Assembly: GCA_026982555.1 (NCBI GenBank)
Contig: JALSGT010000062.1
Coordinates: 2,610-66,609, forward strand
DNA length: 64,000 bases
Direction of reading: 5' to 3'
From: Chromatiales bacterium
GTDB taxonomy: Bacteria; Pseudomonadota; Gammaproteobacteria; SZUA-152
Position 1 is the first letter of the stretch; each line of letters starts with the position of its first letter. The notes under the pieces are model-generated. The model saw only the letters and a program-made list of their open reading frames with translations. It was not told the DNA's origin and made no database searches. Shown here piece after piece: positions 8,659-56,102 of the stretch. The translations under genes were made by a program, and so were the position numbers.

Positions 8659-8662
8659 CAAT

Positions 8663-37200: not shown

Positions 37201-37621
37201 CAAAACCGGGTGGAATACCGGCCTCCAGCGGGAAGCGTCGCAGGATATCCTGGCAAAAGGCATGGAAGGTGGTGGTTTTTACCTTGAAAGGCGAGCGCAA
37301 TAAATCTTCGTACAGTGTGGTGGCTCGTTTGAGTGTCACAGCATCAGCGGGCGCATCGATTTGCTGAAGTAAGGTTTTCAGCCCGGCAGGTGTACTCTGC
37401 GCCAGTTCCAGCAGGCGGGCATTGAGGCGGGTCTGCATTTCTGTGGCGGCCTTGCGGGTAAAAGTGACCGCAAGGATGCCGTCGGCCCGTGCGCCAGCAA
37501 GCAGTAAGCGAATCAGCCGGGTGACCAGCAACCAGGTTTTGCCAGTGCCTGCGGAGGCGTTAACAGTGGCGTTATGTTCGGGGTCGCAAGCGCGCAGGGG
37601 GTTGGCCATGGTGAGGCGCAT
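34202..37621 (-). CDS. UvrD/Rep-family helicase fused to a C-terminal RecB-type PD-(D/E)XK nuclease (AddA-like)
   Basis: Walker A ASAGTGKTW, motif II LLIDEFQDTNPTQW, C-terminal nuclease motif GIIDRLV ... WLVDYKTH. Length 1139 aa. Confidence 0.85.
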   Translation of the reverse strand: MRLTMANPLRACDPEHNATVNASAGTGKTWLLVTRLIRLLLAGARADGILAVTFTRKAATEMQTRLNARLLELAQSTPAGLKTLLQQIDAPADAVTLKRATTLYEDLLRSPFKVKTTTFHAFCQDILRRFPLEAGIPPGFELLESTAELKRAAWDALCADASRHPQSDNAQAIETLFESCNSLANTQTALNRFLEHRSDWWAFTESQADPLGFAMETLSTQLNVSATDKPETDFFNTATLTLLAEFVGLLQKHPGKKNAAALDALAIARDENEKPDRRFAQCCKAFLTASGTPLARKESKTQAKSMGDTGQQRFLELHHRICEQIAQTLNIRNAMDTLCRTGAWYQAGNALLAHYQQLKTEQRLLDFADLEWQAYQLLNHSDNVQWIQYKLDQRIDHLLIDEFQDTNPTQWRLILPLLEELAANETRHSRSVFLVGDNKQSIYRFRRADPELFVTAQNWLDTQLDAITQPLDTSWRSAEAIMTLVNRVFGEGPLHQQLMQFSTHATHHPQLWGHVEFLPLIAAADDETGSTDRTSGELCAPLRNPLQTPRLLKQDQRHLEEGRLVAKKIRHLIDNNTLTGTTDAARPLNYGDIIILLRHRTHAGDYEKALREADIPYIGANRGTLLQSLEVQDLVRLLSLLVTPFNNLGLASVLRSPLFDCSHEDLIALASHTDGQWIDRLTTIVALENRSSALQRAHMLLSRWRAQVDTLPVHDLLDRIYCEGDVLNRYHSAYPAHLQHRVAANLTRFIELALEIDSGRYPSIGRFVSRLHTLQQQEQDAPDEGSPLQAGSRVRLMTIHAAKGLEAPVVFLVDSTNVRNNSVAHQAIVDWPAQAPRPVSFLLTGTKEQQDTFTQNILDQHAKAETREDANLLYVAITRPKQFLFISGCQPRRGDALGWYGFLQAPFVETAEELSTTGWIFTSGQAATHITETTAVPEADTVPQHKIQPLILEKPKSNIAPSNISVSPAAPLTPHMADPDARTRGIAIHRMLQLLSEQATDIPQRVATELDLSTDDDHLITWFNSANTVFHSATFSHLFDPAQFINAHNEVPLHYTNEGQSVYGIIDRLVISKKCIWLVDYKTHHIDNTAKLDALAEHYQPQLNYYRIGIQRLWPTLPIKAGLLFTDMLAWKPLSLSVK

Positions 37622-38425: not shown

Positions 38426-40588
38426 ATGGATACAAGGAAAAAAATTATTATTGCGGGGATTTTAACGTCATCACTGGTGATCGCAGGCTGTAGCGATAAC
38501 GCATCCGACGATTCCTCTTCAAATTCAGAACCAGAACCAAAACCAGATGGTATTTACTCTCTTAACCTGACTGGAGGCCTGGGTGGTACCAATGGTGGGT
38601 CAGGTGGTGACGGTAACAATGTCAGCCTTTACAAGGCAGCAGGTACGGGAAGTGTCGAAGTGCTGGCCGACGGCGCCGCTGATGCCGGTTTTACCCGTAT
38701 TACCCCCGATGTCAACCTGGGGAGTAATCCGCTGGATATTACAACGGGTATTACCGTCGATGTTTTTGCGGAAGACGCGGATGAGCCCGCTGCGGGCACT
38801 CCCTATCTGATTGAGGATAACGGAAGACTGTTTGTATCGGACGGTAATACTGTTCTGGGTGACGAAGCCCCGGTAACGGGCATTAGCGTCGCCAGTGGCG
38901 TTACCTTGACCCTTGGTCTCAACGACACAACTTACGCCCGAATCAGTTTTGATAACGACGTGCTCAATTCCGGTGTCATAACCACGGCGGATATCGATGA
39001 GCTGCATCGTGGTGGTTTGCGCATTTATCCTGCATCGTATGTGGGACAGGCTGACAGCCGTATTGATACTGCCGGTACACAGGACAGTCAAAACGGTGGT
39101 GATGTGCTGATATCAGCTGATTATTCTGTATACAATCATGGCGCAGTTAACACAAGCGGATCAGATAGCGTCGATGACGATGCTGCTGCTGGCGGATATG
39201 TTGAACTCTATGCCGACTATCTCGTGCAAAACACCGGTGATATTGATAGCTCGGGTGGTGATGCCCCCAACGGTGAGGCAGGTCGTGGCGGGAATATTGA
39301 TCTGGCATCCGATTTTGGCAATATGTATAACAGCGGTCGTCTGGTCAATTATGGCGGTGATGGCCAGCTCGGCGGCGACGGCGGCCTGATTAATCTCTAT
39401 GCCGTTGGTGACATGCTGAACAGCGGTGATATCAATGCCCGGGGCGGTATCGGTGGCGCAGATGACGGCGGTAATGGTGCCAGCGTCGAGATGTACGCTT
39501 CCGGTCGCAAACTGGTGAACAGTGGTAACATTTTGGCCGCAGGTGGTAATACAACCGATGCTGATTCCGATGGTGGTGACGGTGGAGAGTTGTATGTTTA
39601 TGCAGAGTACGGCCCTGTTGACAGAGACGCACCCGCAGGTGGTCTTTTTGTTTCCGGCAATATTGATCTTTCCGGCGGCGACGCGGTAGCGACAGGTTAT
39701 GGTGACGGTGGTGTTGCCGGTTCCATTGATGTTCAGGTCTATGGCTCCAATTATCCTTCCGAAGTGGGCTTGGCCCTCCTGGGTTATACCGATATTGACA
39801 CCACAGGTGGTGATGCCAACTTTGGTGGTTCTGCCGGTGATGTGCTTATCTTCAACGATAGCGTGCAGGCCAATGCCGGTGTATACGTGCCGTCTGGCAA
39901 TGTCACCAACGAAGCCGACGTGACTGCTCGTGGCGGCAGTGTCGTGGCGGAGGCGGAAACAATACCGGCGGATGGTGGATCAGGTGGTAATTTCAGGCTG
40001 GAAACTGAAGATAAATATGGTTACATCAATCCTCAGCTGGAGATAACGACTAACAAAGGCAATATTGATGTGTCGGGTGGTAATGGTCTGGAATCAATGA
40101 TGAACGATATCAATCGTTCCGGCTCTGTCTGGCTTTGGGGTTACAACGGCGTCACCAATACCGGCAACATCACTGCAAATGGCGGCGCTGATCTGGGCAC
40201 CGACGGTGATGACACAGGCTACGGTGGTTATGCCAATGATATTGAAATGTATGCAGAGCTAGGCCAGGCCAGCAACAGCGGCAGCATTACGAATAATGGT
40301 GGTGCTGGTGAATACCGGGGTGGTCGTTCAGATGGTTTTAAACTGTATGGAATCACAGTCAGCAATAGTGGTGTGATCAGCTCGAATGGTGGTAATGCAG
40401 ATGCAAGTCTGGAGGGTTCTATCGGTGGCTCCGGTGGCTGGGTTGAGTTTTTCTCGCCGGGTGGTGTTGCCGGTGTGACTCATTCAGGCTCCGTAAGCCA
40501 CACTGCCGGTACGGGTGAAACCGCTAACGATGGTGGTGCCTTTATTCGCGGTGGCATGTGTGTCAGTGGTGATTGTAAGCCTCAGTAA
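38426..40588 (+). CDS. Gly/Asp-rich repeat lipoprotein (predicted surface or periplasmic beta-solenoid-like protein), unknown family
   Basis: Lipoprotein signal MDTRKKIIIAGILTSSLVIAG|C with Ser at +2, then an S/D/P-rich linker. Ten or more degenerate units of the form N(S/T)G-x-I-x3-GG-x(4-10)-GG-x-GG-x-(I/V)-x-(L/M)-Y-A follow. The C-terminus is CVSGDCKPQ. Confidence 0.7.
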   Translation: MDTRKKIIIAGILTSSLVIAGCSDNASDDSSSNSEPEPKPDGIYSLNLTGGLGGTNGGSGGDGNNVSLYKAAGTGSVEVLADGAADAGFTRITPDVNLGSNPLDITTGITVDVFAEDADEPAAGTPYLIEDNGRLFVSDGNTVLGDEAPVTGISVASGVTLTLGLNDTTYARISFDNDVLNSGVITTADIDELHRGGLRIYPASYVGQADSRIDTAGTQDSQNGGDVLISADYSVYNHGAVNTSGSDSVDDDAAAGGYVELYADYLVQNTGDIDSSGGDAPNGEAGRGGNIDLASDFGNMYNSGRLVNYGGDGQLGGDGGLINLYAVGDMLNSGDINARGGIGGADDGGNGASVEMYASGRKLVNSGNILAAGGNTTDADSDGGDGGELYVYAEYGPVDRDAPAGGLFVSGNIDLSGGDAVATGYGDGGVAGSIDVQVYGSNYPSEVGLALLGYTDIDTTGGDANFGGSAGDVLIFNDSVQANAGVYVPSGNVTNEADVTARGGSVVAEAETIPADGGSGGNFRLETEDKYGYINPQLEITTNKGNIDVSGGNGLESMMNDINRSGSVWLWGYNGVTNTGNITANGGADLGTDGDDTGYGGYANDIEMYAELGQASNSGSITNNGGAGEYRGGRSDGFKLYGITVSNSGVISSNGGNADASLEGSIGGSGGWVEFFSPGGVAGVTHSGSVSHTAGTGETANDGGAFIRGGMCVSGDCKPQ

Positions 40589-40668: not shown

Positions 40669-41430
40669 ATGGCTTCTTCTTACAGGCTGCTTTGCCAAAT
40701 ATTGTTTACCAGTATTGTTCTTTTTATGAGCAGCCAGCTTTGGGCTGAGTCACCTCATGTTTCTTATGATAAATCAACAGATACGATTTCTATCGTGGCA
40801 ACGGATGCATCGTACAAAGCAATAATGGCACGTATTGCGACGCTGAGCGGTGTTGAAATTCTTATGGACCCCAAAGCTGAACATAATATTACTATCGAGG
40901 TGAGTGATTTGCCTCTCGAAACGGCGCTGAAGCAACTGAGCCGTCAAACCAGTTTTGTGCTTATTCATGATATTCCTGAAACGGATGTGAATGAATCCCA
41001 GGAGAAATCAGTTCAGCCTGTACTGGTTCGTATGCGCATACTGCCGGAAGGTGAGTTTACTACGGATGCGATATACCCTGTTTTGGCCCCTGGGGGTGAA
41101 GCTTTTATTCGAGAAAAAAATCGTTACTTAGCACCTGCCCAGCAGGTTGACATTTTTAATCATGCCCAAAGGCGTTGGGAAGCCCGGCTGAAAGCAATGT
41201 CGCCGGAAAAACGGGAAAAACTTCTGGATATCGCACAAGAAAAACGTGAACAAATGGCCCAGAATCGTGCTGAACAGGCGCAAAGAAAAAAAGAACTTGC
41301 AGAAAAGCGCGAAGCTTATAAAAAACGACGTGATGCCCGGCTTGAGGAATTAAAATTAATGGACCCGGAACGATATGAACTCCGAATGAAACGGCGAATG
41401 GAAAGGCAGCAGGGCGTTAACAGCGAGTAA
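40669..41430 (+). CDS. Secreted protein with an STN/secretin-N-like module and a K/R/E-rich coiled-coil tail
   Basis: Sec signal MASSYRLLCQILFTSIVLFMSSQLWA|ES. ISIVATDASYKAIMARIATLSGVEILMDPKAEHNITIEVSDLPLETALKQLSR follows the STN pattern. C-terminal RRWEARLKAMSPEKREKLLDIAQEKREQMAQNRAEQAQRKKELAEKREAYKKRRDARLEEL. Confidence 0.6.
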   Translation: MASSYRLLCQILFTSIVLFMSSQLWAESPHVSYDKSTDTISIVATDASYKAIMARIATLSGVEILMDPKAEHNITIEVSDLPLETALKQLSRQTSFVLIHDIPETDVNESQEKSVQPVLVRMRILPEGEFTTDAIYPVLAPGGEAFIREKNRYLAPAQQVDIFNHAQRRWEARLKAMSPEKREKLLDIAQEKREQMAQNRAEQAQRKKELAEKREAYKKRRDARLEELKLMDPERYELRMKRRMERQQGVNSE

Positions 41431-43280: not shown

Positions 43281-46200
43281 ATGGTGGTAAGGCTAGATAG
43301 AAGTAGACTGTATTGCGGTGCGATTGTCGCACTGTTCTTATTGATCAGCGTGAGCACAGCACAGGCAATGTCATTTACATCAGATGATTTTAGTTCCTCT
43401 TCTCTGGACGCATCATTGTGGACCGTAGTTGATCCCCGTGGTGACAGTACACTCCAGTTAAACGGTACCCAGTTAACTATTTCCGTACCCGATGGCCTGA
43501 GCCATGATCTCTGGGAAACCGATCAGAATGCTGTTCGTGTTTTGCAGAATATTGACGATACCGATTTTGAGATTGAAATAAAGTTTGAATCGAACCTGAG
43601 CCAACGATTTCAGGTTCAGGGGTTATTTGTTGAGCAGGATGATCAAAATTTTCTGCGGTTCGATTTTTATTATGATGGTGCTGTTCTTCGTGTTTTTGCG
43701 GCGAGTTTCATTGCTGGAATCCCTACGATTCAACATGAGGCAATCATTACAAATGGCTCGCCGCTATACCTGCGCGTTCAACGGGCAGGGGACCAGTGGA
43801 CGCAGTTTTATTCCTATGATGGTACTAACTGGAATCAGGGCGCGGCATTTTCACACCCGTTGCTTGTCACAAGAGCTGGTCCCTTTGCGGGTAACGCTGG
43901 CAGCCCCGCTCCCGCGTTTACCGCAGTGGTTGATTATGCTTTCAATACCGCGTCCCCGATTATTTTTGAAGATGCAAACGATCCTCTCGATACTATGCCT
44001 CCGTCTATTTCAGATATTGCGATACAGGAAGGCCCGACGCGGGCCCGGGTAAGCTGGTCAACGGATGAGCCGACAATAGGGGCGGTTGAGTATGGCACAA
44101 CGGCCAGCTTTGAGCTTGGGCAGGTTGCCACCGTATCAGGCGGCCAGCAATTTGATGTTTTGCTCGATAATCTCTTACCGGACACAACTTACTATTTCCG
44201 GATTACATCGGAGGATGCCAATGGCAATACCCGGCAGTCAGAGGCATCGCAGTTTGTGACCGCAACTGATGCAGTGCCGCCTGGCCCTTTGATAGACGTA
44301 TGGTATGGTCCAAATCAGCGATTTGGGAATCTGGGTACGCCTCAGCGCTGGGTCAATATTGTGGGTAAAGTGACAGATCCAAATGGCGTGAAATCCCTGT
44401 CCTATCGCGTCAACGGTCAACCTGCCCGACAGCTTTCAATGGGGCCTGATGAAAATCGTTTACATTCTTTAGGCGATTTCAATGCTGAAATCAATGCAGT
44501 TGGGCCGGATGCCGAGTTGAATGTCGGTTTGAATACTGTTGAAATTACGGCGGTGGATAATCTCGATTATTCCACCGTTGAAGTTGTTACTGTGGAATTC
44601 AGCAATAATACTGTTTGGTCACTGCCATATGCTGTCGATTGGTCAAGTGTTACGCAGCCCTGGGATGCGGTTCAAATTGTCGATGGGCTTTGGGATATAC
44701 AAGGTTCTGAAGCCCGGCCTTTGGAACTGGGCTACGACAGGCTGATTGCCATTGGTGATATGTCCTGGACGGATTATGAAATTACCGTGCCGTTTACTGT
44801 GCATGGACTTGAGCCGGGTTATGTTTACGCTGGCCCCTCATTCAGTCCGGGAATCGGTGTTTTATTACGGTGGAGCGGACACTTTGACTGGAATGGCGCG
44901 CAACCTAATACGGGCTGGTGGTCATTTGGCGGGTTTGGGTGGTATCGCTGGAGACAGCCATCTGCGGGTGGTGAGCGTTTTCAAATCATGGGCAATGATG
45001 GCAGTATCATTGCGGATCGCGCTGAATCAAATTTCCCGTTCGGTGTTCCTCATGTTCTCAAGATGAGAGTAGAAACGCCGCCTAACGAAGGCAGCATATA
45101 CAGTCTCAAGATGTGGGAGCAGGCGCAACCTGAGCCGGCGGGATGGGATCTTGTCTCCCAGGAATTACCCACAGACCCTCAAAGCGGTTCACTGCTTCTG
45201 GTTGCACATCATGTTGACGCAACCTTTGGTAATGTCACGATTGTTCCCGCAGGAGATACGACAGGGCCCACGAACAGCAATATTCAGGTGACCAGCTCAG
45301 AAACAGTGGCGACCATTAGTTGGGTGACGAATGAGCCAGCAGCGGTGTCTCTGGCGTATGGTGTTACCAGTAATTATGAATTGGGAACGGTCTCCGACCC
45401 TGCTCTGAATACCAGCCACTCCGTCGAGCTTACCGGGTTAAGCTCTGCTACCGCCTACCAATTCCAGCTGACGGCGACGGATGAAACCGGGAACAGCAGC
45501 AGTTCCGTGAACAGGATTTTTGCCACTTCGGGCGTGATTCCACCTGGCCCGCAATCGGATTATTTTAATGCCGCGACACTGGATGCCCGCTGGACCACAG
45601 TAGACCCGCTGAATGATAACAATGTCACACTGACCGGCACCCAGGTTGCACTGAATATTGTTGGTGGCCCATCGCATGATGTGTGGGCCTCAGGCAACGA
45701 TACCTTGCGTTTGATGCAAGATGTCCTGGACCAGGATTTTATGGCGGAAGTGAAATTTGACTCTCTGCCAACTCAGCAGTATCAGATACAAGGGATACTG
45801 GTTGAGCAGGACAATGATAATTTCCTGCGCTTTGATTATTTTAGTGATGGAACAGACCTGCGGATATTTTCGGCCAGCTTTGTCAACGGGGTACCGACGG
45901 TGCGAGTGGACGATGTTGTATCATTAAGTGCGCCGATGTATCTGCGTGTAGTACGAGTGAGTGACACCTGGATATTGTTGTACAGCGGGGATGGCGTGAG
46001 CTGGACAGCGGCGGGAAGTTATATGCATAGCTTGCAGATGAATACCATGGGTATATTTGCTGGCAATGCACAGGCAGGTAATGCACCTGCCTATACTGCA
46101 CTGGTGGATTATTTTTTGACGGATGTTGAAGCACCGATTCCGGATACCACCCCGCCACTGATTGATAATATTGTGGTGGACAGTGCGGGTGAAGAAGCAA

Positions 46201-49200
46201 CACTGAGCTGGATAACGGATGAACCTGCTGACAGTCAGGTTATGTACGGCACGGCACCCGGGACGTATGAACTGGGTACCGTATCGAGCGCGACACTGAC
46301 ACAGAACCACAGTATTACCCTGACGGGACTGACTCTCGGCACTGTGTATTACTACCAGGTGAGTAGCAGTGATGCGGACAACAATACTGGTAGCAGCGTT
46401 GATCTTAATTTCCTTGCGGAAGATCTGACAGCACCGACAATCAGCGATGTTCAAATTGTGAGAGTGGATAGCAGTGCGACCATCAGTTGGGTCACCAATG
46501 AACCTGCCGACAGTATGCTCGACTATGGCGAGACCACTGCCTATGAGCTGGGTACGGTTTCGAGTGCTGCAGGTACCAGTCACTCTGTTGTGCTTAACGG
46601 ATTGACGCCAGGTGTCATGTATTATTTCCAGCTTACGGCGACCGATAGCAGCAATAACAGCGGCAGTTTATCGAATCAGGCATTTTTAATGTTTGGGCCA
46701 CAATCAGATGACTTTAATGCCGCAACACTGGATGCCCGCTGGATCACGGTAGACCCGCTGGGTGATAACAGTGTTGCATTGACGGGCAGTCAGCTTGAGT
46801 TGAATGTTACCGGCGGTCAGCCGCACGATGTGTGGACTTCGGGCAACGATGCCTTGCGTTTAATGCAAACAGTGGTAGATCAGGACTTTGTGGTGGAAGT
46901 AAAGTTTGATTCTCTGCCAACTCAGCGATATCAGATACAAGGCATTCTGGTTGAGCAGGACAATGGTAATTTCCTGCGTTTTGATTATCTGAGTGATGGC
47001 ACGGACCTGCGGATATTTTCGGCCAGTTTTGCCAATGGAGTGCCGACAGCGCAAATAAATAATATTGTGTCGTTGGGTGTACCTCTGTATTTACGTGTGG
47101 AACGAGTGAGTGATACCTGGACACTGTCTCACAGTGAGGATGGTGCGAACTGGACAGTGGCTGGAAGCTATGTACACAGTCTGCAAGTGAATACTATCGG
47201 TGTGTTTGCGGGTAACACTGGCGGGAGTGGTTCCCCGGCCTACACCGCACTGGTGGACTCTTTTGTGACGAATGCGGTGGTACCTGTCCCGGATACGACT
47301 GCGCCACTGATTGATAATGTTATGGTGGATCGTGCGGGTGAGGAAGCAACGTTGAGCTGGACAACGGATGAACCTGCTGACAGTCAGGTCATGTATGGCA
47401 CGGCACCGGGGACATATGAACTGGGTACCGTATCGAGTGCGGCGTTAACACAAAACCATAGCATTACCTTGACGGGGCTGATCCCCGGCACCGTGTATTA
47501 CTACCAGCTGAGCAGTCGTGATGCGAACAACAACACCGGCAGCAGTGCCGATCTTAATTTCCTGGCGGAAGACCTGGTGCCGCCGACGATCAGTGATGTT
47601 CAGGTTACGAGAGCTGACAGCAGTGCAACCATCAGCTGGATCACAAACGAACCCGCCAGTAGTGTGCTTGAGTATGGCGAGACTAATGCCTACGAGCTGG
47701 GCTCAGTTTCGAGTGGCAGCACAGGTACCAGTCACTCTGTTGTGCTGAGTGGGTTAACGTCTGATGTTATGTATTATTTCCAGCTCACGGCGACTGATGG
47801 CAACAATAATAGCAACAGTCTGTCGAATCAGACATTTATGATGTCCGGGGTACAATCGGATGACTTTAACACGACGATATTGGATTCCCGCTGGACCACG
47901 ATAGACCCGCTGGGCGATAACAGTGTTGCATTAACGGGCAGTCAGCTTGAGCTGAGTGTCGCGGGTGGTCAGCCGCATGATGTGTGGATCTCGGGCAACA
48001 ATGCTTTGCGTTTAATGCAAACCGTGGTGGACCAGGATTTTGTGGCGGAAGTGAAGTTTGATTCTCTGCCGACCCAGCGATATCAGATACAAGGCATTCT
48101 GGTTGAGCAGGACAATGGTAATTTCCTGCGCTTTGATTATATTAGTGACGGCACGGACCTGCGGATATTTTCGGCCAGCTTTGTTGATGGTGTACCTACG
48201 TCACGGGTTTACGATGTTGTGTCACCGGGTCTGCCACTGTATTTACGTGTGGAGCGGGTGGGGGACACCTGGACGCTGTCGTATAGCGGGGACGCTGTGA
48301 ACTGGACGATAGCTGTCAGTTATGTACACAGCCTGCAAGTGAATGCCATCGGCGTGTTTGCAGGTAACACCGGAGGGAGTGGTTCTCCTGCTTACACGGC
48401 ACTGGTGGATTATTTTCTTACGAATGCCACAGCCTTTGTTCTGGATACGATTCCACCAGTGATCGGCGATATTATGGTGGACAGTGTGGGCGAAGAAGCA
48501 ACACTGAGCTGGACAACGAATGAACCGGCAAACAGTCAGGTCATGTACGGCACGGCACCGGGGACATATGAACTGGGTACCGTATCAAGTGCGGCGTTAA
48601 CACAAAATCACAGCATTACCCTGACGGGACTGACCCCCGGTACCGTGTATTACTACCAGCTGAGCAGCAGTGATGCAGACAACAACACCGGTAGTAGTGC
48701 CGATCTTAATTTCCTTGTGGAAGACCTGACGGCACCGGTGATCAGTAATGTTCAAGTCGTGAGAACGGCGGCCAGTGTGACCATCAGCTGGGTCACCAAT
48801 GAATCCGCCAGTAGTGTGCTTGAGTATGGCGAGACTAATGCCTACGAGCTGGGCTCAGTTTCGAGTGGCAGCACAGGCACCAGTCACTCTGTTGTACTGA
48901 GTGGGCTAACGCCTGACGTTGTGTACTATTTACAGATCACGGCAACTGACAACAGCAATAACAGCAGTTTAGTGAATCAGACGTTTTTAATATCGGACTC
49001 ACAATCGGATGATTTTAACACCACAATATTGGATGCCCGCTGGACCGTGGTGGATCCGCTGGGTGATGGCAGTGTTGGTCTGACGGGCAGCCAGCTTGAA
49101 CTGAATGTCCCCGGTGGTCAGTCTCACGATGCATGGACCGCAGGTAACGATACATTACGTTTAATGCAAAATGTCGAGGACCAGGATTTTGTGGCGGAAG

Positions 49201-49589
49201 TGAAGTTTGACTCCCTGCCAACCCGGCGATATCAGATACAAGGCATTCTGGTTGAGCAGGATAATGGTAACTTCCTGCGTTTTGATTATATTAGTGACGG
49301 CACGAGCCTGCGGATATTTTCGGCCAGTTTTGTGGATGGAGTACCCACGTCACGGGTTTACGATGTTGTGTCGTTGGACGCACCGTTGTATCTGCGTGTG
49401 GAGCGGGTGGGTGATACCTGGACATTGTCGCACAGTGGGGATGGTGTGAGCTGGACGGTGGCCGTGAGTTATGTGCATAGCCTGCAGGTGAATGCCATTG
49501 GTGTATTTGCCGGTAACACATGGGGCGCTGGTTCACCTGCCCACACAGCACTGGTAGACTATTTTACGACGGATGCAGTTGCGCAGTAA
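43281..49589 (+). CDS. Giant secreted multidomain protein (2102 aa): 5 ConA-like lectin/glucanase-type modules, 1 divergent jelly-roll region and about 8 FN3-like modules
   Basis: Signal peptide ...IVALFLLISVSTAQA|MS. Recurring roughly 200-aa module SDDF..(L)D.RW..VDP.GD ... HD.W ... RL.Q ... DF..EVKFDS ... YQIQGILVEQD..NFLRFDY ... LRIFSA ... LYLRV.R.GD.W ... S.DG..W ... FAGN ... YTALVDYF. Recurring FN3-like module (A)TISWVTNEPA.S ... YG ... YELG.VSS ... HS(I/V).L.GL.P..VYY(Y/F)Q(L/V). No C-terminal PEP-CTERM, LPXTG or T9SS-like tag is visible. Confidence 0.85.
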   Translation: MVVRLDRSRLYCGAIVALFLLISVSTAQAMSFTSDDFSSSSLDASLWTVVDPRGDSTLQLNGTQLTISVPDGLSHDLWETDQNAVRVLQNIDDTDFEIEIKFESNLSQRFQVQGLFVEQDDQNFLRFDFYYDGAVLRVFAASFIAGIPTIQHEAIITNGSPLYLRVQRAGDQWTQFYSYDGTNWNQGAAFSHPLLVTRAGPFAGNAGSPAPAFTAVVDYAFNTASPIIFEDANDPLDTMPPSISDIAIQEGPTRARVSWSTDEPTIGAVEYGTTASFELGQVATVSGGQQFDVLLDNLLPDTTYYFRITSEDANGNTRQSEASQFVTATDAVPPGPLIDVWYGPNQRFGNLGTPQRWVNIVGKVTDPNGVKSLSYRVNGQPARQLSMGPDENRLHSLGDFNAEINAVGPDAELNVGLNTVEITAVDNLDYSTVEVVTVEFSNNTVWSLPYAVDWSSVTQPWDAVQIVDGLWDIQGSEARPLELGYDRLIAIGDMSWTDYEITVPFTVHGLEPGYVYAGPSFSPGIGVLLRWSGHFDWNGAQPNTGWWSFGGFGWYRWRQPSAGGERFQIMGNDGSIIADRAESNFPFGVPHVLKMRVETPPNEGSIYSLKMWEQAQPEPAGWDLVSQELPTDPQSGSLLLVAHHVDATFGNVTIVPAGDTTGPTNSNIQVTSSETVATISWVTNEPAAVSLAYGVTSNYELGTVSDPALNTSHSVELTGLSSATAYQFQLTATDETGNSSSSVNRIFATSGVIPPGPQSDYFNAATLDARWTTVDPLNDNNVTLTGTQVALNIVGGPSHDVWASGNDTLRLMQDVLDQDFMAEVKFDSLPTQQYQIQGILVEQDNDNFLRFDYFSDGTDLRIFSASFVNGVPTVRVDDVVSLSAPMYLRVVRVSDTWILLYSGDGVSWTAAGSYMHSLQMNTMGIFAGNAQAGNAPAYTALVDYFLTDVEAPIPDTTPPLIDNIVVDSAGEEATLSWITDEPADSQVMYGTAPGTYELGTVSSATLTQNHSITLTGLTLGTVYYYQVSSSDADNNTGSSVDLNFLAEDLTAPTISDVQIVRVDSSATISWVTNEPADSMLDYGETTAYELGTVSSAAGTSHSVVLNGLTPGVMYYFQLTATDSSNNSGSLSNQAFLMFGPQSDDFNAATLDARWITVDPLGDNSVALTGSQLELNVTGGQPHDVWTSGNDALRLMQTVVDQDFVVEVKFDSLPTQRYQIQGILVEQDNGNFLRFDYLSDGTDLRIFSASFANGVPTAQINNIVSLGVPLYLRVERVSDTWTLSHSEDGANWTVAGSYVHSLQVNTIGVFAGNTGGSGSPAYTALVDSFVTNAVVPVPDTTAPLIDNVMVDRAGEEATLSWTTDEPADSQVMYGTAPGTYELGTVSSAALTQNHSITLTGLIPGTVYYYQLSSRDANNNTGSSADLNFLAEDLVPPTISDVQVTRADSSATISWITNEPASSVLEYGETNAYELGSVSSGSTGTSHSVVLSGLTSDVMYYFQLTATDGNNNSNSLSNQTFMMSGVQSDDFNTTILDSRWTTIDPLGDNSVALTGSQLELSVAGGQPHDVWISGNNALRLMQTVVDQDFVAEVKFDSLPTQRYQIQGILVEQDNGNFLRFDYISDGTDLRIFSASFVDGVPTSRVYDVVSPGLPLYLRVERVGDTWTLSYSGDAVNWTIAVSYVHSLQVNAIGVFAGNTGGSGSPAYTALVDYFLTNATAFVLDTIPPVIGDIMVDSVGEEATLSWTTNEPANSQVMYGTAPGTYELGTVSSAALTQNHSITLTGLTPGTVYYYQLSSSDADNNTGSSADLNFLVEDLTAPVISNVQVVRTAASVTISWVTNESASSVLEYGETNAYELGSVSSGSTGTSHSVVLSGLTPDVVYYLQITATDNSNNSSLVNQTFLISDSQSDDFNTTILDARWTVVDPLGDGSVGLTGSQLELNVPGGQSHDAWTAGNDTLRLMQNVEDQDFVAEVKFDSLPTRRYQIQGILVEQDNGNFLRFDYISDGTSLRIFSASFVDGVPTSRVYDVVSLDAPLYLRVERVGDTWTLSHSGDGVSWTVAVSYVHSLQVNAIGVFAGNTWGAGSPAHTALVDYFTTDAVAQ
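45552..49589 (+). repeat. In-frame tandem DNA repeat, period 1149-1152 bp, about 3.5 copies, inside the giant gene
   Basis: Unit starts caatc(g/a)gat(t/g)a(t/c)tttaa at 45552, 46701, 47853 and 49002. Long stretches are near-identical between copies, for example 47670-47760 vs 48823-48913 and 46901-47040 vs 48060-48200, which differ at only scattered positions. Confidence 0.88.
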
Positions 49590-49670: not shown

Positions 49671-49704
49671 ACCCATGGCCATTAAGATATTAATGGCCAT
49701 GGGT
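49671..49704 (+). terminator. Hairpin terminator between the convergent giant gene and the GT2 gene
   Basis: Perfect 14-bp stem acccatggccatta / taatggccatgggt with a 6-nt loop, followed by a T-rich tract on the + strand. It lies 82 nt after the giant gene stop and 9 nt from the GT2 stop. Confidence 0.7.
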
Positions 49705-49712
49705 TTATGTTT

Positions 49713-50639
49713 TTATTTGCGGGCTCGTTTGCGCCTTATTTCATTGACGAGTTCTTTCCATAATTCCTTCCGCAGCCAAAAAAGCTCTTTACCGACCGAT
49801 TTTAGTAAATCAAGCTTATGCTGAAAGGACAGCGGTGAACGAATAATGCTGGAAGCAATTTTTTGGAGACAGGTCCATGATTGCAACGAAATGCGGTTTT
49901 TGGTTGCCGGGTCGTAGAATTCCTGTTTACTTGCTGTTTCAGCTTCGGGCCATGAAAAAGATTGGTCATGGCGTCTCATTGATAGCAGGCAGTCAGGCAC
50001 CTCACAGAATTTGCCGAGCAGTATCAGTTCGATGAGCAGTGTCGTATCTGCACCAATGTAATTGCCGATCAAGCGCGTTTTTCGCAGAGCATCTGATTGA
50101 ATAAGACCGAATATATACGTTCCCTTCCATCCAGAGACACGCTTGCCTGAGCGCTGGAACATTTCCATTAATGCATGGTATCGCATGCGTGGATCATTTG
50201 AGGTCAGGCTCAGATAGTCATCCAGTACCAGACCTTTGATTGGTGTTCCCTGGTCGTCAATACCATCTCCCCTGGAAAACGCCAACACGGCTTCAGGATC
50301 ACTCCGGCCAGCTTTCAGGCAACTTTCCAGATACGTTGGCTCGCAAATATCATCAGCAGCTGCCCATTTGAAATAGTCTCCTGTTGCTAATGCAAATGTG
50401 TTGTTAAAATTCCATGCGGCACCCCGGTTATGGTCATAACGGTAGTATCGAATACGTTCATCATTAGTCGCGTATTTTTCACAGATTTCACCTGTGCGAT
50501 CTGTTGAGCCATTGTCAGATATGATGAGTTCAAAATCCGGGAAGGTTTGGCCTAGAATGGAGTCTATTGCTGCGCTGAGGAATTTTTCACCGTTGTAAAC
50601 GGGAATGCCGATACTGATTAGCGGTTTTTTTGTCATCAA
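49713..50639 (-). CDS. Family 2 glycosyltransferase
   Basis: ISIGIPVYNGEKFLSAAIDSILGQTFPDFELIISDNGSTD, a classic GT-A/GT2 N-terminus. Confidence 0.9.
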   Translation of the reverse strand: MMTKKPLISIGIPVYNGEKFLSAAIDSILGQTFPDFELIISDNGSTDRTGEICEKYATNDERIRYYRYDHNRGAAWNFNNTFALATGDYFKWAAADDICEPTYLESCLKAGRSDPEAVLAFSRGDGIDDQGTPIKGLVLDDYLSLTSNDPRMRYHALMEMFQRSGKRVSGWKGTYIFGLIQSDALRKTRLIGNYIGADTTLLIELILLGKFCEVPDCLLSMRRHDQSFSWPEAETASKQEFYDPATKNRISLQSWTCLQKIASSIIRSPLSFQHKLDLLKSVGKELFWLRKELWKELVNEIRRKRARK

Positions 50640-50673
50640 TTGCTAAACCCTGTTGTCACATAATCTATTTTAT

Positions 50674-52158
50674 TTAGTTATTAGATTTTAGTTTTTCTTT
50701 TATAATATCAAAAAGTTTGATTTCCATGGAGGTTTCCGGATGTGTTGTACATATGCGCAGCAATAAAAAGAGACTGGCAAAATAGCTTGCGGCGCCAACA
50801 GCAGATAACGATATCAGTTTAATCAGGTGCGCCAGAATTGATGAAGTCTCACCCCATAGCGTCAGTGCAGATAAAACGATTGCGGCCATAAATAAAGAAG
50901 AAACAACAGGCCGCCACAGCAGGCTTATGACTTGTAACAGGTTGAGGTTCAGTTTGCGTGACAGGATGATGAAATTGATTGGCATCGACAGAAAAGCGAT
51001 TATGGCAATGGCCCAGGCTGCCATCAGGACGCCACTGGAGGCCAGTGCCCATATGATGGCAGGATAAATGAGGAAAACAGTAAATATTGATAAATAGGTA
51101 ATTATTTTAGGAATTCCCAATGCCAGGTATATTGCCCCCGTATTTGCTTGCAGCGCACGGAATATTCCTGTTATAGCAAGAGCCTGGATAAGGGGAATGC
51201 TATCTAACCACTTTTGTCCCAGAAAAACCTGAACAAGAGGGTCGGCCAAAAGAGCGATACCTGTGCCAATGGGTACGGTAAAAAGTGCAACCAGAGAGAA
51301 AACATCAAGAAAGCCTTTTCTCAACATCGCGATATCATTAGACATCTTGGCATATCCGGGAAATACCGCCCGGGTAACAGGGAATACCAGTTCAGATGTG
51401 GGAAGATTAGATATCTCATAGGATACGCTGTACATCCCAAGTGCTTGTGTTCCCGCCATTTTGCCGATAACAAAATCAATGCCGCGAATATTGACGAAAA
51501 TCAGAATATTGTTTATCAGCATCCACTTTGAAAAATGAAAAAGCTCCGAGGCTTTGGCAAGAGAAAAACGTGGTCGATAGGGGTGCATCATATAGCTTAT
51601 TATCAGGCCAACAAGCTTTGATGTGATGATGCCGGCAACAAGTGCCCAATAGTTTTTGAAGGTGAAGGCAAGGGATATGGTGACAAGGAAAGATACAATT
51701 TTTTGTATGAGCAGAAAATTAAACTCTTTCCTGAAGTTAAGTTCCTTACGAAATGCAACGATACCGATGTTTTCAAAACCCTGAATCAGTGTCGCCAGGG
51801 CAAGAAAGTGCATTATCCCTGCGAGATTCGGCTCCTCAAAGAAAGCCGCCGCCGGATTCGCAAGCAAGAAAAGGGCAGTAGCGGCAAAAATGGCGTACAA
51901 CACATTGAATGTCCATGCCGTATCGTAGTGCTGCCGGGAAGCCTTTTGGTTCTGGATCAGCGCAAGGTCAAAACTGAATGCGCCCATAATTTCCAGTGCG
52001 GCAAAAATGGCCATTGCGATGGCGACAAGCCCGAAATCCTCGGGTACAAGCAGGCGGGCCAGTATTACCGTACTAATCAGGCCAAGGCCACGCTGGGAAA
52101 ATTTAAAAAGCACCATCCACCCGGCACCCTTGGCCATTTTTTTATTTAAGTCCTCCAT
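50674..52158 (-). CDS. Wzx-like polysaccharide flippase (MOP/PST family, Polysacc_synt)
   Basis: KGAGWMVLFKFSQRGLGLISTVILARLLVPEDFGLVA N-terminus typical of PST flippases. About 14 TM helices, 494 aa. Confidence 0.8.
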   Translation of the reverse strand: MEDLNKKMAKGAGWMVLFKFSQRGLGLISTVILARLLVPEDFGLVAIAMAIFAALEIMGAFSFDLALIQNQKASRQHYDTAWTFNVLYAIFAATALFLLANPAAAFFEEPNLAGIMHFLALATLIQGFENIGIVAFRKELNFRKEFNFLLIQKIVSFLVTISLAFTFKNYWALVAGIITSKLVGLIISYMMHPYRPRFSLAKASELFHFSKWMLINNILIFVNIRGIDFVIGKMAGTQALGMYSVSYEISNLPTSELVFPVTRAVFPGYAKMSNDIAMLRKGFLDVFSLVALFTVPIGTGIALLADPLVQVFLGQKWLDSIPLIQALAITGIFRALQANTGAIYLALGIPKIITYLSIFTVFLIYPAIIWALASSGVLMAAWAIAIIAFLSMPINFIILSRKLNLNLLQVISLLWRPVVSSLFMAAIVLSALTLWGETSSILAHLIKLISLSAVGAASYFASLFLLLRICTTHPETSMEIKLFDIIKEKLKSNN

Positions 52159-52441
52159 TGATACCCCGGCATGAGATTTAAACCACCCGCATTAGATTAG
52201 TACAACACTGCGCCAGAGACCTCTGGGGAACGGCATGAGTTGTAAGTGAAAAAACCGCACAGCATACCAAATAGATCACTATTTTACTTTGTTTGTGTGA
52301 GGTGCAAAGTACCACTAACAGATTGACACGTACTTGGATTATTATTTTGTACTAGGCCCGAGTTTAGGCTGGCTTTGAGTGACAATTTGAAAATGGGGTC
52401 TACACGGGAAAATCACAGGTTTTTGGTCGGCGATGGTTAAA

Positions 52442-52639
52442 CCTAAATTCCGCAGTTGACCGCTTCGAGGATGTATTCACATTTTGATAAATCGCTTGCT
52501 GGGTGGTTTTGGCGCATTCATTGGTTGAATGAGTCGCGACGACCTGTATAGCACGTTGCCTTTTGCGTCTGGCCGCGTCGCGCCTTGCCAGCCACAAAAT
52601 TCAACGCACTCTACAGGCCGTTCAACTGCGGAATCTAGG
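52442..52639. mobile_element. MITE-like element, copy B (198 bp; lacks a roughly 35-bp internal module)
   Basis: TIRs CCTAAATTCCGCAGTTGA ... TCAACTGCGGAATCTAGG flanked by the direct repeat TTAAA (52437-52441 and 52640-52644). It lies in the divergent wzx / rfbF intergenic region. Confidence 0.75.
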
Positions 52640-52957
52640 TTAAATGACGGTCATGAATTACTGAATTGTGGTCATGAGTTACACAAGCGGTTGGAACGCA
52701 AATGAGAAAAGGCCGGCAAGGGAGAAAGTCGGGCTGGCTATGTTATCATTGCCCCCGAAAACGGGGTCCCACCCTGTGAAGAAATGGAGCCGATTTTAAG
52801 CTCCCGGCATATAGAGCTGCTGAGCATTCCACTGTTGGTGTAAGCCAAGGTAAGATGGCGACCTCCGGCTGTTGTTGTGTGGCGGAGCAGGGTATAAGGC
52901 CGTGCCGGAGTTGTGGGTGCATTGGATGACAGAAAACAAGATAACTTGGAGAATTAT

Positions 52958-53728
52958 ATGAAAGTAGCGTTTCTGGCAGGAGGATACGGTACTCGCCTGG
53001 CGGAGGAGACCGAAGTACGCCCGAAGCCGATGGTTGAGATTGGCGGGCATCCCATTCTTTGGCACATCATGATGCATTACCATCGCTATGGGTATAACGA
53101 ATTTGTTGTTGCACTGGGTTACAAGGGCGATTACATCAAGCGCTGGATGAAGGATTTTGCTTCATTAAACGGCCATTTGACGGTGAAAACAGCGACCGGC
53201 AAGGTGACTTCTCACGGTGCAAACAACCCGGACTGGACCGTGGATCTGGTGGATACCGGGTTAACCACACTCACCGGCGGACGTATCAAGCGCCTGCAAC
53301 CCTGGGTGGGGGAAGAGACGTTCATGCTGACCTGGGGAGATGGTGTTTCTGACGTGGACCTCGACAAACTGCTTGCATTCCACAAATCTCATGGCAAGTT
53401 GGCGACAATGACGGCGGTGCGTCCACCTGCACGTTACGGCCACCTGGAATTCGACGGCGACAAAATCATGAGCTTTACGGAAAAACCACAAACCAGCGAA
53501 GGCTGGATCAATGGTGCTTTTTTTGTACTGGAGCCGGGTATTTTTGATTATATTTCCGGTGACCAGATCATGTGGGAGGAGGAGCCGCTTGAGAATCTTG
53601 CAAAAGATGGTCAATTGATGGCCTATCGTCATGATTCTTTTTGGCAGTGCATGGATACATTGCGCGAAAAACATCTTTTGGAACGTTTGTGGCAGGCAGG
53701 GTCTCCGCCATGGAAAACATGGGAATAA
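52958..53728 (+). CDS. rfbF: Glucose-1-phosphate cytidylyltransferase
   Basis: MKVAFLAGGYGTRLAEETEVRPKPMVEIGGHPILWHIMMHY. 257 aa from the ATG at 52958, which has GGAG 6 nt upstream. The C-terminal WQCMDTLREK motif is typical of RfbF. Confidence 0.9.
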   Translation: MKVAFLAGGYGTRLAEETEVRPKPMVEIGGHPILWHIMMHYHRYGYNEFVVALGYKGDYIKRWMKDFASLNGHLTVKTATGKVTSHGANNPDWTVDLVDTGLTTLTGGRIKRLQPWVGEETFMLTWGDGVSDVDLDKLLAFHKSHGKLATMTAVRPPARYGHLEFDGDKIMSFTEKPQTSEGWINGAFFVLEPGIFDYISGDQIMWEEEPLENLAKDGQLMAYRHDSFWQCMDTLREKHLLERLWQAGSPPWKTWE

Positions 53729-53734
53729 TGTGAA

Positions 53735-54757
53735 ATGAAAGTATTAGTAACAGGACATTCGGGGTATATCGGGACTGTATTGGTTCCCATGTTGTTGGAC
53801 CACGGACATGATGTTTCCGGGCTGGATAACGGCTGGTTTGAACACTGCGTGTTCACGGGTGAAGTGGTTCAGATACCCGGCATTAAAAAAGATGTGCGTG
53901 ACGTGGAAAAAGCGGACCTGGAAGGCTTTGATGCGATTATTCATCTGGCAGGTCTATCCAATGACCCGCTGGGTGATTATCGGCCTGGCCTGACCGAAGA
54001 GATTAACGACAAAGCCTCCGTCAGGATCGCCACGCTGGCGAAAGAAGTGGGGGTTGAGCGATTTATATTCGCCTCATCATGCAGCAACTATGGCGCTTCG
54101 GGTGATCAGTTTTTAACCGAAGATGCTGCCTTTAATCCGGTGACCCCTTACGGCGTGTCCAAAGTCAAAGTGGAAGAAGGGTTGGATAAACTGGCCGACG
54201 ACAGCTTTTGTCCCGTTTATTTACGCGCATCCACCGCCTATGGCATGTCACCGATTATTCGTTTCGATCTCGTGCTTAACAATTTGACGGCATGGGCTTT
54301 CACAACGGGTCAAGTATATCTGAAGAGTGACGGCACACCGTGGCGTCCCATTGTGCATGTGGAGGATATCTGTCGTGCCTATGTGGCAGCTCTGCATGCA
54401 CCACGGGATGTGGTTTTCAATCGTGGCTTCAATGTAGGCACTACCACGGAAAACTATCAGATCCGTGAGCTTGCGGAAATCGTGCAGGATGTCGTGCCCA
54501 ATTGCCGTGTTGAGTTTGCCGACGATGCCGGGCCGGACAAACGTTGTTATCGGGTTGACTGTAATCGTATTGCCACTGAACTCCATGAGTTCAAACCGCA
54601 ATGGACTGCACACCAGGGTGTTGTGGAACTGTACGAAACCTACAAGAAAGTGGGTTTGACGCTCGACGAATTCGAGGGAGAGAAATTCAAACGTATCGCA
54701 CATCTTCAGAAATTAGTAAAAGATAAAAAACTGGATGAAACGTTGCGCTGGGCCTGA
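53735..54757 (+). CDS. Extended SDR, NAD-dependent sugar epimerase/dehydratase/reductase family
   Basis: VLVTGHSGYIGT (GxxGxxG), SSCSNYG, PYGVSK (YxxxK). I did not recognise it as a canonical CDP-glucose 4,6-dehydratase. Confidence 0.82.
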   Translation: MKVLVTGHSGYIGTVLVPMLLDHGHDVSGLDNGWFEHCVFTGEVVQIPGIKKDVRDVEKADLEGFDAIIHLAGLSNDPLGDYRPGLTEEINDKASVRIATLAKEVGVERFIFASSCSNYGASGDQFLTEDAAFNPVTPYGVSKVKVEEGLDKLADDSFCPVYLRASTAYGMSPIIRFDLVLNNLTAWAFTTGQVYLKSDGTPWRPIVHVEDICRAYVAALHAPRDVVFNRGFNVGTTTENYQIRELAEIVQDVVPNCRVEFADDAGPDKRCYRVDCNRIATELHEFKPQWTAHQGVVELYETYKKVGLTLDEFEGEKFKRIAHLQKLVKDKKLDETLRWA

Positions 54758-54872
54758 TTCCTGATCAAGGAAAGACACTTTCAGGGTCGGCGTAAATTCA
54801 CGTCAACTGTACGGCCACGGCGTATTGCCCGGTGATGCCGTCACGAACACTTCAACAGGTGAAATTAAGGAT

Positions 54873-56102
54873 ATGAGTGCTGAAATAACTGCTTGCAGAT
54901 CATGCAACAAACCCGGTCTTGAAACCTTTCTGGATTTGGGGCGAACGCCACTGGCAGACCGTATACTGACCCCCGCTCAACTGGAAGAGCATGAGCCAAT
55001 GTATCCGTTGAAAGTGGCTTTTTGTCCCGGCTGCGGACTGATGCAAATTACGGAAACGGTGGAGCCTGATGAACTGTTCTGTGATGACTATCCGTACTTT
55101 TCGTCTTTTTCCGACTACCTGCTTGAGCATTCAAAAGAAAATGTTCTGGATGTCATTGAACGGCGGAAACTGGGAGCCGATAGCTTTGTGGTTGAGCTTG
55201 CCAGCAATGATGGTTACTTGCTGAAAAATTATGTTGAACACGGCATCCCCGTTTTGGGTATCGACCCGGCAGACGGGCCCGCTGCCGCTGCGGAAAAAAT
55301 CGGTGTGCCGACCCGCAATACCTTTTTTACCAAAGCGCTTGCGCAGGAACTGGTTCAGCAAGGGTCGCAGGCTGACGTGATACATGGTAACAATGTACTG
55401 GCACATGTTGCAGACACCAATGGCTTTGTTTCCGGCATGGCAGACCTGCTCAAAGAGGATGGTGTTATCGTGATTGAAGCGCCATACGCCAAGGATTTGA
55501 TTGACCATTGTGAATTCGACACCATTTACCACGAGCATCTCTGCTATTTTTCCGTGACGGCATTAAATAATTTGTTTCGCCAACACGGCCTGTATCTGAA
55601 TGAAATTAAGCAATTGTCTGTCCATGGCGGCTCCCTGCGGCTTTATGTGGAAAAACAGGAAAACATGGGTTCGTCAGTGAAAGATTTACTGGCGCTGGAG
55701 CAAGCAGAAAAAGTTGATAAAATTGATTTTTACCGGGATTTTTCCACTCGGGTTGAAGCGGTAAAAGCCGCATTATTGGCGTTGCTGACTGATCTGAAAT
55801 CCCAGGGGAAAAGTATCGCTGCCTACGGGGCTGCGGCGAAGGGCAGCACACTGATCAACTACATGGGGATTGGCACAGACCTGATTGATTTTGTGGTGGA
55901 TAGAAACATACACAAACAGGGTCGTTTCATGCCGGGGCAACATATCCCGATTTTTGCACCTGAAAAAATAATGGAAGAACGCCCCGATTATGTACTTATT
56001 TTACCCTGGAATGTGACCGACGAAATTCTCAAGCAACAGCAGGAATATCGTGATCAGGGTGGAAAATTTATTGTGCCTATTCCTGAACCAAAAATTATCT
56101 AA
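54873..56102 (+). CDS. Zinc-ribbon SAM-dependent methyltransferase, NDP-hexose C-methyltransferase-like (paralogue 1)
   Basis: N-terminal CRSCN ... CPGCG four-Cys ribbon, a SAM-binding region VVELASNDGYLL, and a C-terminal Rossmann-like domain (IAAYGAAAKGSTLINY). The start is uncertain (ATG 54873 vs TTG 54825). Confidence 0.72.
   Translation: MSAEITACRSCNKPGLETFLDLGRTPLADRILTPAQLEEHEPMYPLKVAFCPGCGLMQITETVEPDELFCDDYPYFSSFSDYLLEHSKENVLDVIERRKLGADSFVVELASNDGYLLKNYVEHGIPVLGIDPADGPAAAAEKIGVPTRNTFFTKALAQELVQQGSQADVIHGNNVLAHVADTNGFVSGMADLLKEDGVIVIEAPYAKDLIDHCEFDTIYHEHLCYFSVTALNNLFRQHGLYLNEIKQLSVHGGSLRLYVEKQENMGSSVKDLLALEQAEKVDKIDFYRDFSTRVEAVKAALLALLTDLKSQGKSIAAYGAAAKGSTLINYMGIGTDLIDFVVDRNIHKQGRFMPGQHIPIFAPEKIMEERPDYVLILPWNVTDEILKQQQEYRDQGGKFIVPIPEPKII

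Follow-up and report, generated by a model that had tools for sequence, protein, structure and literature searches.

The locus described here raises a simple question. Is a giant gene with four long in-frame repeats an unstable and possibly mis-assembled array, or an old structure that has kept its form? The gene occupies positions 43281-49589 of the forward strand in a stretch of 64,000 nucleotides (nt), hereafter the window, from a Chromatiales bacterium (assembly GCA_026982555.1, contig JALSGT010000062.1, positions 2,610 to 66,609), and unless another locus is named the positions below are those of the window. Its product is a secreted all-beta protein, composed of several lectin and FN3 modules. 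An initial annotation of this DNA described the repeats as near-identical, and read them as a sign of recent amplification or ongoing gene conversion. Our analysis leads to a different picture, which we hold with considerable confidence: the array is old and in frame, is fixed at four units that evolve independently, carries only short conversion tracts in its FN3 modules, and is neither unstable nor mis-assembled.

Each array unit consists of one ConA-like module of the DUF1349/GH43_C2 type (195 amino acids, aa) and two FN3 modules (95 and 93 aa). The module coordinates below were set by hidden Markov models (HMMs) built from the array units.

43281..49589, + strand: whole gene, one intact open reading frame (ORF), stop codon included; product of 2102 aa
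43281..43367, + strand: probable Sec signal peptide, aa 1-29 (...STAQA, then M), read from the translation by its basic N-region, hydrophobic core and AQA motif
43377..43961, + strand: N-terminal lectin module L0, aa 33-227, HMM match, outside the array
43983..44267, + strand: FN3 module, aa 235-329, Pfam fn3 and HMM matches
44268..45260, + strand: central module, aa 330-660, an Ig-like sandwich plus a galectin/L-type-lectin-like jelly roll
45249..45536, + strand: FN3 module ahead of the array, aa 657-752, HMM matches
45552..46136, + strand: lectin module L1 (unit 1), HMM match
46137..46700, + strand: FN3a-1 (46137-46421) and FN3b-1 (46422-46700), HMM matches
46701..47285, + strand: lectin module L2 (unit 2), HMM match
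47286..47852, + strand: FN3a-2 (47286-47570) and FN3b-2 (47571-47852), HMM matches
47853..48437, + strand: lectin module L3 (unit 3), HMM match
48438..49001, + strand: FN3a-3 (48438-48722) and FN3b-3 (48723-49001), HMM matches
49002..49586, + strand: terminal lectin module L4, HMM match; the protein ends directly after it

In residues, the unit-derived HMMs place L1-FN3a-FN3b at 758-1140, L2-FN3a-FN3b at 1141-1524, L3-FN3a-FN3b at 1525-1907 and L4 at 1908-2102. Antisense ORFs within the gene, for example at 45924-46583, were taken as spurious overlaps. Pfam matches on the whole protein were to DUF1349 (3e-40), GH43_C2 (1e-42) and Pur_ac_phosph_N/FN3 (8e-62). DUF1349 (PF07081) reached 138 bits against a cut-off of 32.4 and GH43_C2 (PF17851) 146 bits against 22.7, each over five stretches, and FN3-type HMMs matched with 206 bits over eight stretches (PF16656) and with 91 bits (PF00041). 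These Pfam and HMM matches support the unit content given in the initial annotation. A scan of the whole protein against NCBIfam returned one sub-threshold match to the FN3 region and none that was significant, and a PDB sequence search returned weak FN3 matches and nothing else.

The periodicity described earlier was reproduced. A repeat search placed direct repeats at 45552, 46701, 47853 and 49002, with spacings of 1149, 1152 and 1149 nt, each a multiple of three, and a self-offset scan recovered the same offsets together with their sums, 2301 and 3450. Tandem Repeats Finder reported no array; its maximum period was 500 nt, and so this is not evidence against the repeats. Four copies in register, about 80% identical along 1.15 kb, cannot be put down to chance.

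The similarity between the units is a different matter. In codon alignments, unit 1 shares 78.9% nt and 76.2% aa identity with unit 2, 77.7% and 74.1% with unit 3, and 77.4% and 72.3% with unit 4. Unit 2 shares 83.3% nt and 81.2% aa with unit 3, and 79.5% and 78.5% with unit 4; units 3 and 4 share 81.5% and 84.1%. Synonymous divergence (dS, Nei-Gojobori) between units is 0.55-0.84, and the ratio of nonsynonymous to synonymous divergence (dN/dS) is 0.13-0.22. The best 300-nt stretch between units in the self-offset scan reached 90% identity at most. The array units have 13 exact words of at least 25 nt in common, the longest of which (73, 56 and 38 nt) all connect units 2 and 3. An identity matrix of the units had been proposed as a check, and it gives 77-83% nt and 72-84% aa identity, which does not sustain the description as near-identical. 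Other parts of that description hold: identity among copies 2-4 (79.5-83.3% nt) modestly exceeds their identity with unit 1 (77.4-78.9%), L0 is much farther away (47% aa identity to L2), many of the changes are synonymous, as the dN/dS values indicate, and runs of dozens of identical bases do exist, although they are few. The L0 modules from all relatives form a separate clade (95% bootstrap), which points to L0 as an old paralogue beyond the array.

The age of the array can be read from its relatives, all of them from metagenome assemblies. A protein search returned the following genes:

P0002 (the same as L001): 90% identity, 2103 aa
P0003 (on L002, GCA_964411295.1 CAYPKN010000010.1): 77% identity, 1714 aa
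P0004: 80% identity, 1337 aa
P0005: 81% identity, 1340 aa
P0006: 74% identity, 1338 aa
P0007 (on L006, Ga0316204_10018741): 46% identity, 2123 aa

Three further full-length genes with four units came from scans of genomes and metagenomes, namely L008 (2102 aa), L010 (2109 aa) and L012 (2103 aa). The last is 97.9% identical to the window gene at the nt level (codon alignment) and lies on a 176-kb contig; P0002, L008 and L010 are collinear four-unit genes with 88-93% aa identity to the window protein. The loci of P0002 to P0006 are syntenic with the window. Genes for a family 2 glycosyltransferase (GT2) and a Wzx flippase follow downstream in convergent orientation in all five, and a GT1-like gene lies upstream in P0002-P0005; the contig of P0006 does not show that side. 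P0007 sits on a short contig without informative neighbours, which ends almost at the gene borders (gene 1187-7558).

A comparison of copy number among relatives, also proposed in the initial annotation, gives a constant four in the five genomes of the clade (window, P0002, L008, L010 and L012), at 87-98% identity. Variation in unit number appears only among orthologues at 74-81% identity, namely three units in P0003 and two each in P0004, P0005 and P0006. Among the 120 best homologues, the number of lectin modules per protein ranges from 2 to 7. The predicted expansion and contraction is thus found in the wider family (unit numbers of 2, 3 and 4, and a perfect duplication in one orthologue), but not among the five genomes of the clade.

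Within this clade, the modules pair by position. Codon alignments of the window with P0002 gave 89-92% nt identity for orthologous modules (dS 0.25-0.40) and 75-87% for paralogous ones. Across the four other genomes, units at the same position differ from those of the window by a dS of about 0.3, compared with 0.35-1.0 for paralogous units. In trees of four genomes, L1, L2, L3 and L4 each form a position-specific clade with 100% bootstrap, as do FN3b-1 (100%), FN3b-2 (100%) and FN3a-1 (82%); support is low for FN3a-2 (0%), FN3a-3 (2%) and FN3b-3 (40%). Furthermore, 17 lectin columns are constant within a position and different between positions. The positional clades and the lower orthologous dS indicate that the four-unit array predates the split of the five lineages. 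Orthologue dN/dS is 0.09-0.22 across all modules (L1 0.16, L3 0.09), which indicates that all four units are maintained by selection.

These results bear directly on the possibility that the repeats were recently amplified or are continuously homogenized, expand and contract through RecA, and vary in length within a population in the manner of the Periscope Proteins. The units of the window gene are only 77-83% identical, with paralogous dS well above the orthologous one. Positional orthology of the lectins at full bootstrap support, four units in five of five genomes down to 87% identity, including a strain at 98%, and the lack of any conversion signal since the split from L012 (see below) all speak against it. 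In its favor are the short FN3 conversion tracts, the 13 exact words above the pairing minimum of about 25 nt, with the longest at 73 nt, and the behavior of more distant relatives, to which we return. Taken together, we give this explanation little credence, and the claim of recent amplification is not borne out.

Gene conversion has left traces in the array, although only short and past ones. We compared the window and P0002 by quartet site patterns, in which sites either group the orthologues (O) or the paralogues of the same genome (C). Units 1 and 2 gave 125 O and 15 C sites, units 1 and 3 gave 138 and 11, and units 2 and 3 gave 62 and 26. In this last pair the two types are unevenly distributed, with 6 O and 20 C among 30 informative sites in FN3a alone, and 36 O and 1 C among 41 informative sites in the lectin alone (Fisher p = 3e-10); nearly all C sites fall in one FN3a block. 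Two tracts could be delimited:

47408..47538, + strand: conversion tract of about 130 nt in FN3a-2, partner FN3a-3 at 48560-48690, from runs of concerted site patterns
47653..47725, + strand: core of an older conversion tract of about 75 nt, the 73-nt exact word, where FN3b-2 equals FN3b-3 at 48805-48877

The first tract is 91.6% identical between FN3a-2 and FN3a-3, against 82.5% in the remaining FN3a. The orthologous dS of FN3a-2 is 0.70, compared with about 0.3 in other modules, and its lack of a positional clade likewise indicates conversion, just as the low bootstrap values of FN3a-3 and FN3b-3 indicate that these modules are mosaic. For the second tract, permutation of the polymorphic sites never produced a 73-nt run amid 83% identity (0/5000). 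Its variants are common to the window and L012 and are not found in P0002, L008 or L010, and therefore the tract arose in the common ancestor of the first two. A further FN3b-1-like stretch is present in FN3b-3 of L008 and L010. Within-genome paralogues are closer than positional orthologues in FN3a-2/3 and parts of FN3b, but not in the four lectins, FN3a-1 or FN3b-1/2.

One could also suppose that no conversion took place at all, that the units resemble each other through ancestry and purifying selection, and that noise from chance or lineage sorting accounts for the concerted patterns. Most of the array, and all lectin modules, do fit simple divergence. Among the polarized array differences between the window and L012, 40 of 76 match a paralogue, where 39.5 ± 2.4 would be expected; recent micro-conversion since that split, considered as a candidate, was rejected for want of any excess of paralogue-matching alleles. 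The clustering of concerted sites in FN3a-2/3 (20/30, compared with 1/41 in the lectin), the roughly doubled dS of FN3a-2, the permutation result and the lineage-specific variants of FN3b-2/3 and FN3b-3 leave very little room for a history free of conversion. The data support conversion in tracts of about 70-130 nt, restricted to the FN3 modules and to the past. Of the conversion claimed earlier this is the part that stands, and ongoing conversion is not detectable since the split from L012.

RecA-dependent exchange requires roughly 25-30 nt of perfect identity. It drops by orders of magnitude at 15-20% divergence, where mismatch repair rejects the pairing. With 17-23% divergence and only 13 words of at least 25 nt, the array is therefore a poor recombination substrate, in which exchange is possible but rare, and such rarity fits the unchanged architecture in five genomes.

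The same lack of long identical stretches matters for the assembly. The initial annotation had warned that a short-read assembler may have collapsed the repeats, and an assembler could equally have inflated them, so that the true copy number would differ from four. The window probably is a short-read metagenome contig, and two related contigs described below end in a repeated 127-nt suffix, their matching MEGAHIT contigs having one unit fewer than they imply. Set against this, no exact word exceeds 73 nt, which is shorter than the final k-mers of 141, 151 and 127 that contig names or repeated contig ends suggest for related assemblies, and than typical reads; with k-mers of 127-151 and 150-nt reads the units thus assemble unambiguously. 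A second, independent assembly (ERZ27262642, contig k141_295177) bears a gene identical to that of the window, with 1 mismatch in 8309 nt. Besides, four other assemblies, made with different assemblers judging by their contig names, are collinear and carry distinct position-specific substitutions, the ORF is intact, and each unit is under purifying selection. An assembly artefact has scarcely any probability in our view; four is the true number of units, and it is stable in this lineage. Collapse is unlikely for the window gene and a genuine problem in relatives with perfect repeats.

P0003 contains a perfect match of 1205 nt at an offset of 1152, where gene nt 2780-3984 equal 3932-5136 (together 7780-10136 of its locus). 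The match covers one exact period of 1152 bp and a further 53 nt of identity at the junction. This structure is expected if, in a two-unit ancestor, lectin C-terminal ends sharing 53 nt underwent an unequal homologous crossover. L1 and L2 of P0006 share 95% identity (dS 0.13), and so have been homogenized. In P0007 the four units measure about 1167 nt each; two share 92% identity, and exact runs extend to 342 nt. All four of its lectins fall in a single clade (99% bootstrap), indicating that this array was amplified or homogenized independently. Two contigs of the Joint Genome Institute (JGI), L014 (Ga0316204_10023408) and L013 (Ga0316202_10002509), match the genes of P0004 and P0005, respectively, at 100% identity over about 4004 nt. 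Instead of a stop after L2, they continue with 71 nt identical to the start of FN3a-1 and then end, their last 127 nt exactly repeating the earlier stretch from the end of L1 into FN3a-1. Such ends look like a vertex of a de Bruijn graph at k = 127, and imply reads running from L2 into the beginning of an FN3a. They would be explained by a variant with a perfect duplicate and at least three units, lost from the MEGAHIT contigs by collapse or pruning, or else present as a minority.

The perfect duplication, the similar units of P0007, the extra unit implied by L013 and L014, and the range of two to four units across the family are what recent amplification would lead one to expect, and they were found in relatives of the window gene. 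Expansion by unequal recombination happens in the wider family; none was seen among the five genomes of the window clade. Concern about copy-number change and collapse is justified for the relatives with identical repeats.

For the window gene itself, an old array with settled positions remains our preferred reading, and a plausible history can be proposed. L1 groups with the L1 of the two-unit orthologues, and L2-L4 group with their terminal lectin, which points to growth from an L1-FN3a-FN3b-L2 ancestor by duplication of an FN3a-FN3b-lectin block. The two-lectin ancestor, whose form survives in the syntenic orthologues, would have grown to four lectin units by duplication of this 1.15-kb block before the five four-unit genomes diverged, most likely through unequal homologous recombination at short identical stretches of adjacent lectin modules. 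Afterwards the units would have evolved separately under purifying selection, keeping their positional orthology, with sequence exchange restricted to short conversion tracts in the more similar FN3 spacers. The array can equally be read as L1 followed by three blocks of FN3a-FN3b-lectin, and the same block is duplicated in P0003. It does end with a lectin, as noted before, but whether the last unit is called truncated depends on the unit phase, and given the block-duplication origin the truncation is only a boundary choice.

What the modules do is suggested by their folds. The AlphaFold2 (AF2) model of L2, with a predicted local distance difference test (pLDDT) of 95.4, has 14 strands in a ConA-like, two-sheet jelly-roll beta-sandwich. 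Its Foldseek matches, with a probability of 1.00, were C-terminal sandwiches of GH43 enzymes (6ms3), the DUF1349 structures 3o12 and 3mep, and ERGIC-53, and it superposes on DUF1349/GH43-C structures with template modeling (TM) scores of about 0.7-0.77. Of the 120 best homologues, 118 contain the central module, in a single copy in each row inspected; it is the conserved core of the protein family, with the invariant motifs YDR, RW.GH and AHH.D. Pfam gave no significant match on it, with Big_7 below threshold at 17.9 bits (cut-off 24.1), and a profile search with it returned nothing meaningful. Its model (pLDDT 91.8) comprises an Ig-like sandwich and a galectin/L-type-lectin-like jelly roll, with Foldseek matches to the lectin domain of GALC, to VIP36 and to the YesU-like 1oq1. 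Matches to jelly-roll lyases (PL14/PL20) were weak (E about 1e-3). The module may be a lectin or an enzyme; a hidden catalytic domain was considered here, and the model shows just the Ig-like and lectin-like sandwiches.

The C-terminus ...ALVDYFTTDAVAQ (...DYFTTDAVAQ), read from the translation, directly abuts the lectin fold. The protein shows no recognizable cell-surface anchor, be it PEP-CTERM, LPXTG or another. An exosortase substrate with PEP-CTERM was considered and rejected, as the C-terminus has no PEP motif, transmembrane helix or basic tail. Downstream of the gene lies one further element:

49671..49704, strand not assigned: hairpin with a 15-bp perfect stem (ACCCATGGCCATTAA...TTAATGGCCATGGGT) and a T-rich tail, found by a terminator scan, consensus match only

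It separates the giant gene from the GT2 gene convergent with it, and is likely a terminator.

Positions 1-31000 and 49713-56102 of the window form an exosortase (XrtA/EpsH-type) exopolysaccharide locus. It encodes an EpsH/EpsI fusion (EpsH+DUF3485, 2260-3918), six GT4-type glycosyltransferases, two Asn-synthase-like amidotransferases, an AMP-binding enzyme, a heparinase II/III-like protein (13666-15696), a Wzy_C-like protein, a polysaccharide deacetylase, an MBOAT protein, a GT2, a Wzx flippase and sugar-nucleotide enzymes. Two ORFs immediately upstream of the GT1-like gene, at 38426-40588 (720 aa) and 40669-41430 (253 aa), had no significant match in Pfam or NCBIfam. The middle of the polysaccharide locus holds a gene for a C-5 cytosine DNA methylase (7378-8658), next to a 343-aa ORF without a Pfam match. 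The pair (7378-9694) falls within the stretch of lowest GC in the window (42%, compared with about 49%) and may have been inserted as a restriction-modification module. A gene on the reverse strand (34202-37621) separates the two halves of the locus; its 1139-aa product joins a UvrD-type helicase to a PD-(D/E)XK nuclease (AddA/RecB-like). GC skew is positive in all 2-kb bins (0.05-0.19) whatever the gene orientation, and cumulative skew rises monotonically over 1-64000, which suggests that the whole window belongs to one replichore, the + strand being the leading one.

Folds and surroundings together suggest that the protein is most likely a secreted multivalent glycan binder, acting on the polysaccharide of the locus or on external glycans. 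A bolder idea, which we regard as rather doubtful, is that it cross-links the exopolysaccharide matrix with tunable valency: the 17 position-specific columns would reflect a glycan specificity at each position, and lineages would tune the cohesion of flocs or biofilms by gain and loss of blocks. If the protein were such a cross-linker, the P0003 duplication and the L2-to-FN3a junctions would be unequal crossovers at short identity islands, caught in the act, and the central module without a Pfam match could be the true functional core, as a new lectin or a jelly-roll lyase-like domain.

Several points weigh against the account given here. Carbohydrate binding by the lectin modules, and a link of the protein to the exopolysaccharide of the locus, are both inferred from fold and neighborhood only, and no functional study of the domain was among the titles and abstracts listed by a full-text search on DUF1349. 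On the side of the array, L2 and L3 of L010 are closer to each other (dS 0.35, with an 88-nt exact run), and thus some exchange between lectin modules does occur in relatives. As dS values near 0.8-1.0 approach saturation, the timing is relative only. The copy number of four was judged from assemblies, and every comparison genome is itself a metagenome assembly. The perfect duplication of P0003 could be a very recent expansion, or an assembler traversing a loop in its graph.

The array is of a known kind, an in-frame domain array that arose by tandem duplication, here old and diverged and in an uncharacterized protein family. The closest comparison is with the Periscope Proteins and other surface proteins of variable repeat length (SasG, Rib/alpha-C, Esp and CdrA), which combine highly identical DNA repeats with strain-to-strain variation in repeat number (Whelan et al. 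2021, PMC8201768). Like them, the window gene encodes a long secreted protein with tandem repeats of globular domains and long in-frame DNA repeats; the repeat number is 2, 3 or 4 among orthologues of the family, and at least one relative has perfect repeats. Unlike them, its repeats are 77-83% identical, with no exact word beyond 73 nt, so that the hallmark of highly identical DNA repeats is missing, and the count stays at four in five genomes of 87-98% identity. Some relatives come near both features. The repeats of this class form a stalk that is anchored to the cell and projects a functional domain at its far end; the window unit holds more than a stalk domain, with a putative ligand-binding lectin module, and no surface anchor was recognized in the protein.

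With DUF1349 (PF07081) and the GH43 C-terminal domain (PF17851; 3o12, 3mep, 6ms3 and 2exh) the lectin modules share above-threshold Pfam matches and a matching AF2 fold. In contrast to GH43_C2 enzymes, they stand alone as lectin-type modules in tandem with FN3 spacers, and are not attached to a GH43 catalytic propeller.

Biofilm matrices contain lectins such as RbmC/Bap1 of Vibrio and LecB of Pseudomonas, and tandem arrays of carbohydrate-binding modules are found in secreted glycan-active proteins. As in these, several beta-sandwich modules of the sugar-binding type in one chain would give multivalent avidity, and the window gene, like those of matrix lectins, lies within an exopolysaccharide biosynthesis locus. 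The differences are that it has no recognizable catalytic domain, that no sequence relationship was found, and that its binding and matrix roles are conjectural.

Concerted evolution of tandem paralogues offers a last parallel, in that FN3a-2/3 are closer within the genome than to their orthologues, and that P0003 carries a perfect duplication of one period with a 53-nt junction. Here homogenization is limited to tracts of about 70-130 nt, and the lectin modules are wholly free of it and keep their position-specific sequence.

Nothing in this result will surprise specialists. For annotation and assembly quality control, it means that the four-unit structure can be trusted, and that no flag as collapse-prone or hypervariable is needed. 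For the family, the orthologue series, from two units through three with a perfect 1152-bp duplication to four diverged units, illustrates the birth and divergence of domain arrays, in which FN3 spacers still exchange sequence and lectin modules do not. The 53-nt crossover junction in P0003 shows how little identity suffices for expansion. The family is widespread in metagenomes, and work on its function could bring to light a new class of matrix lectins.

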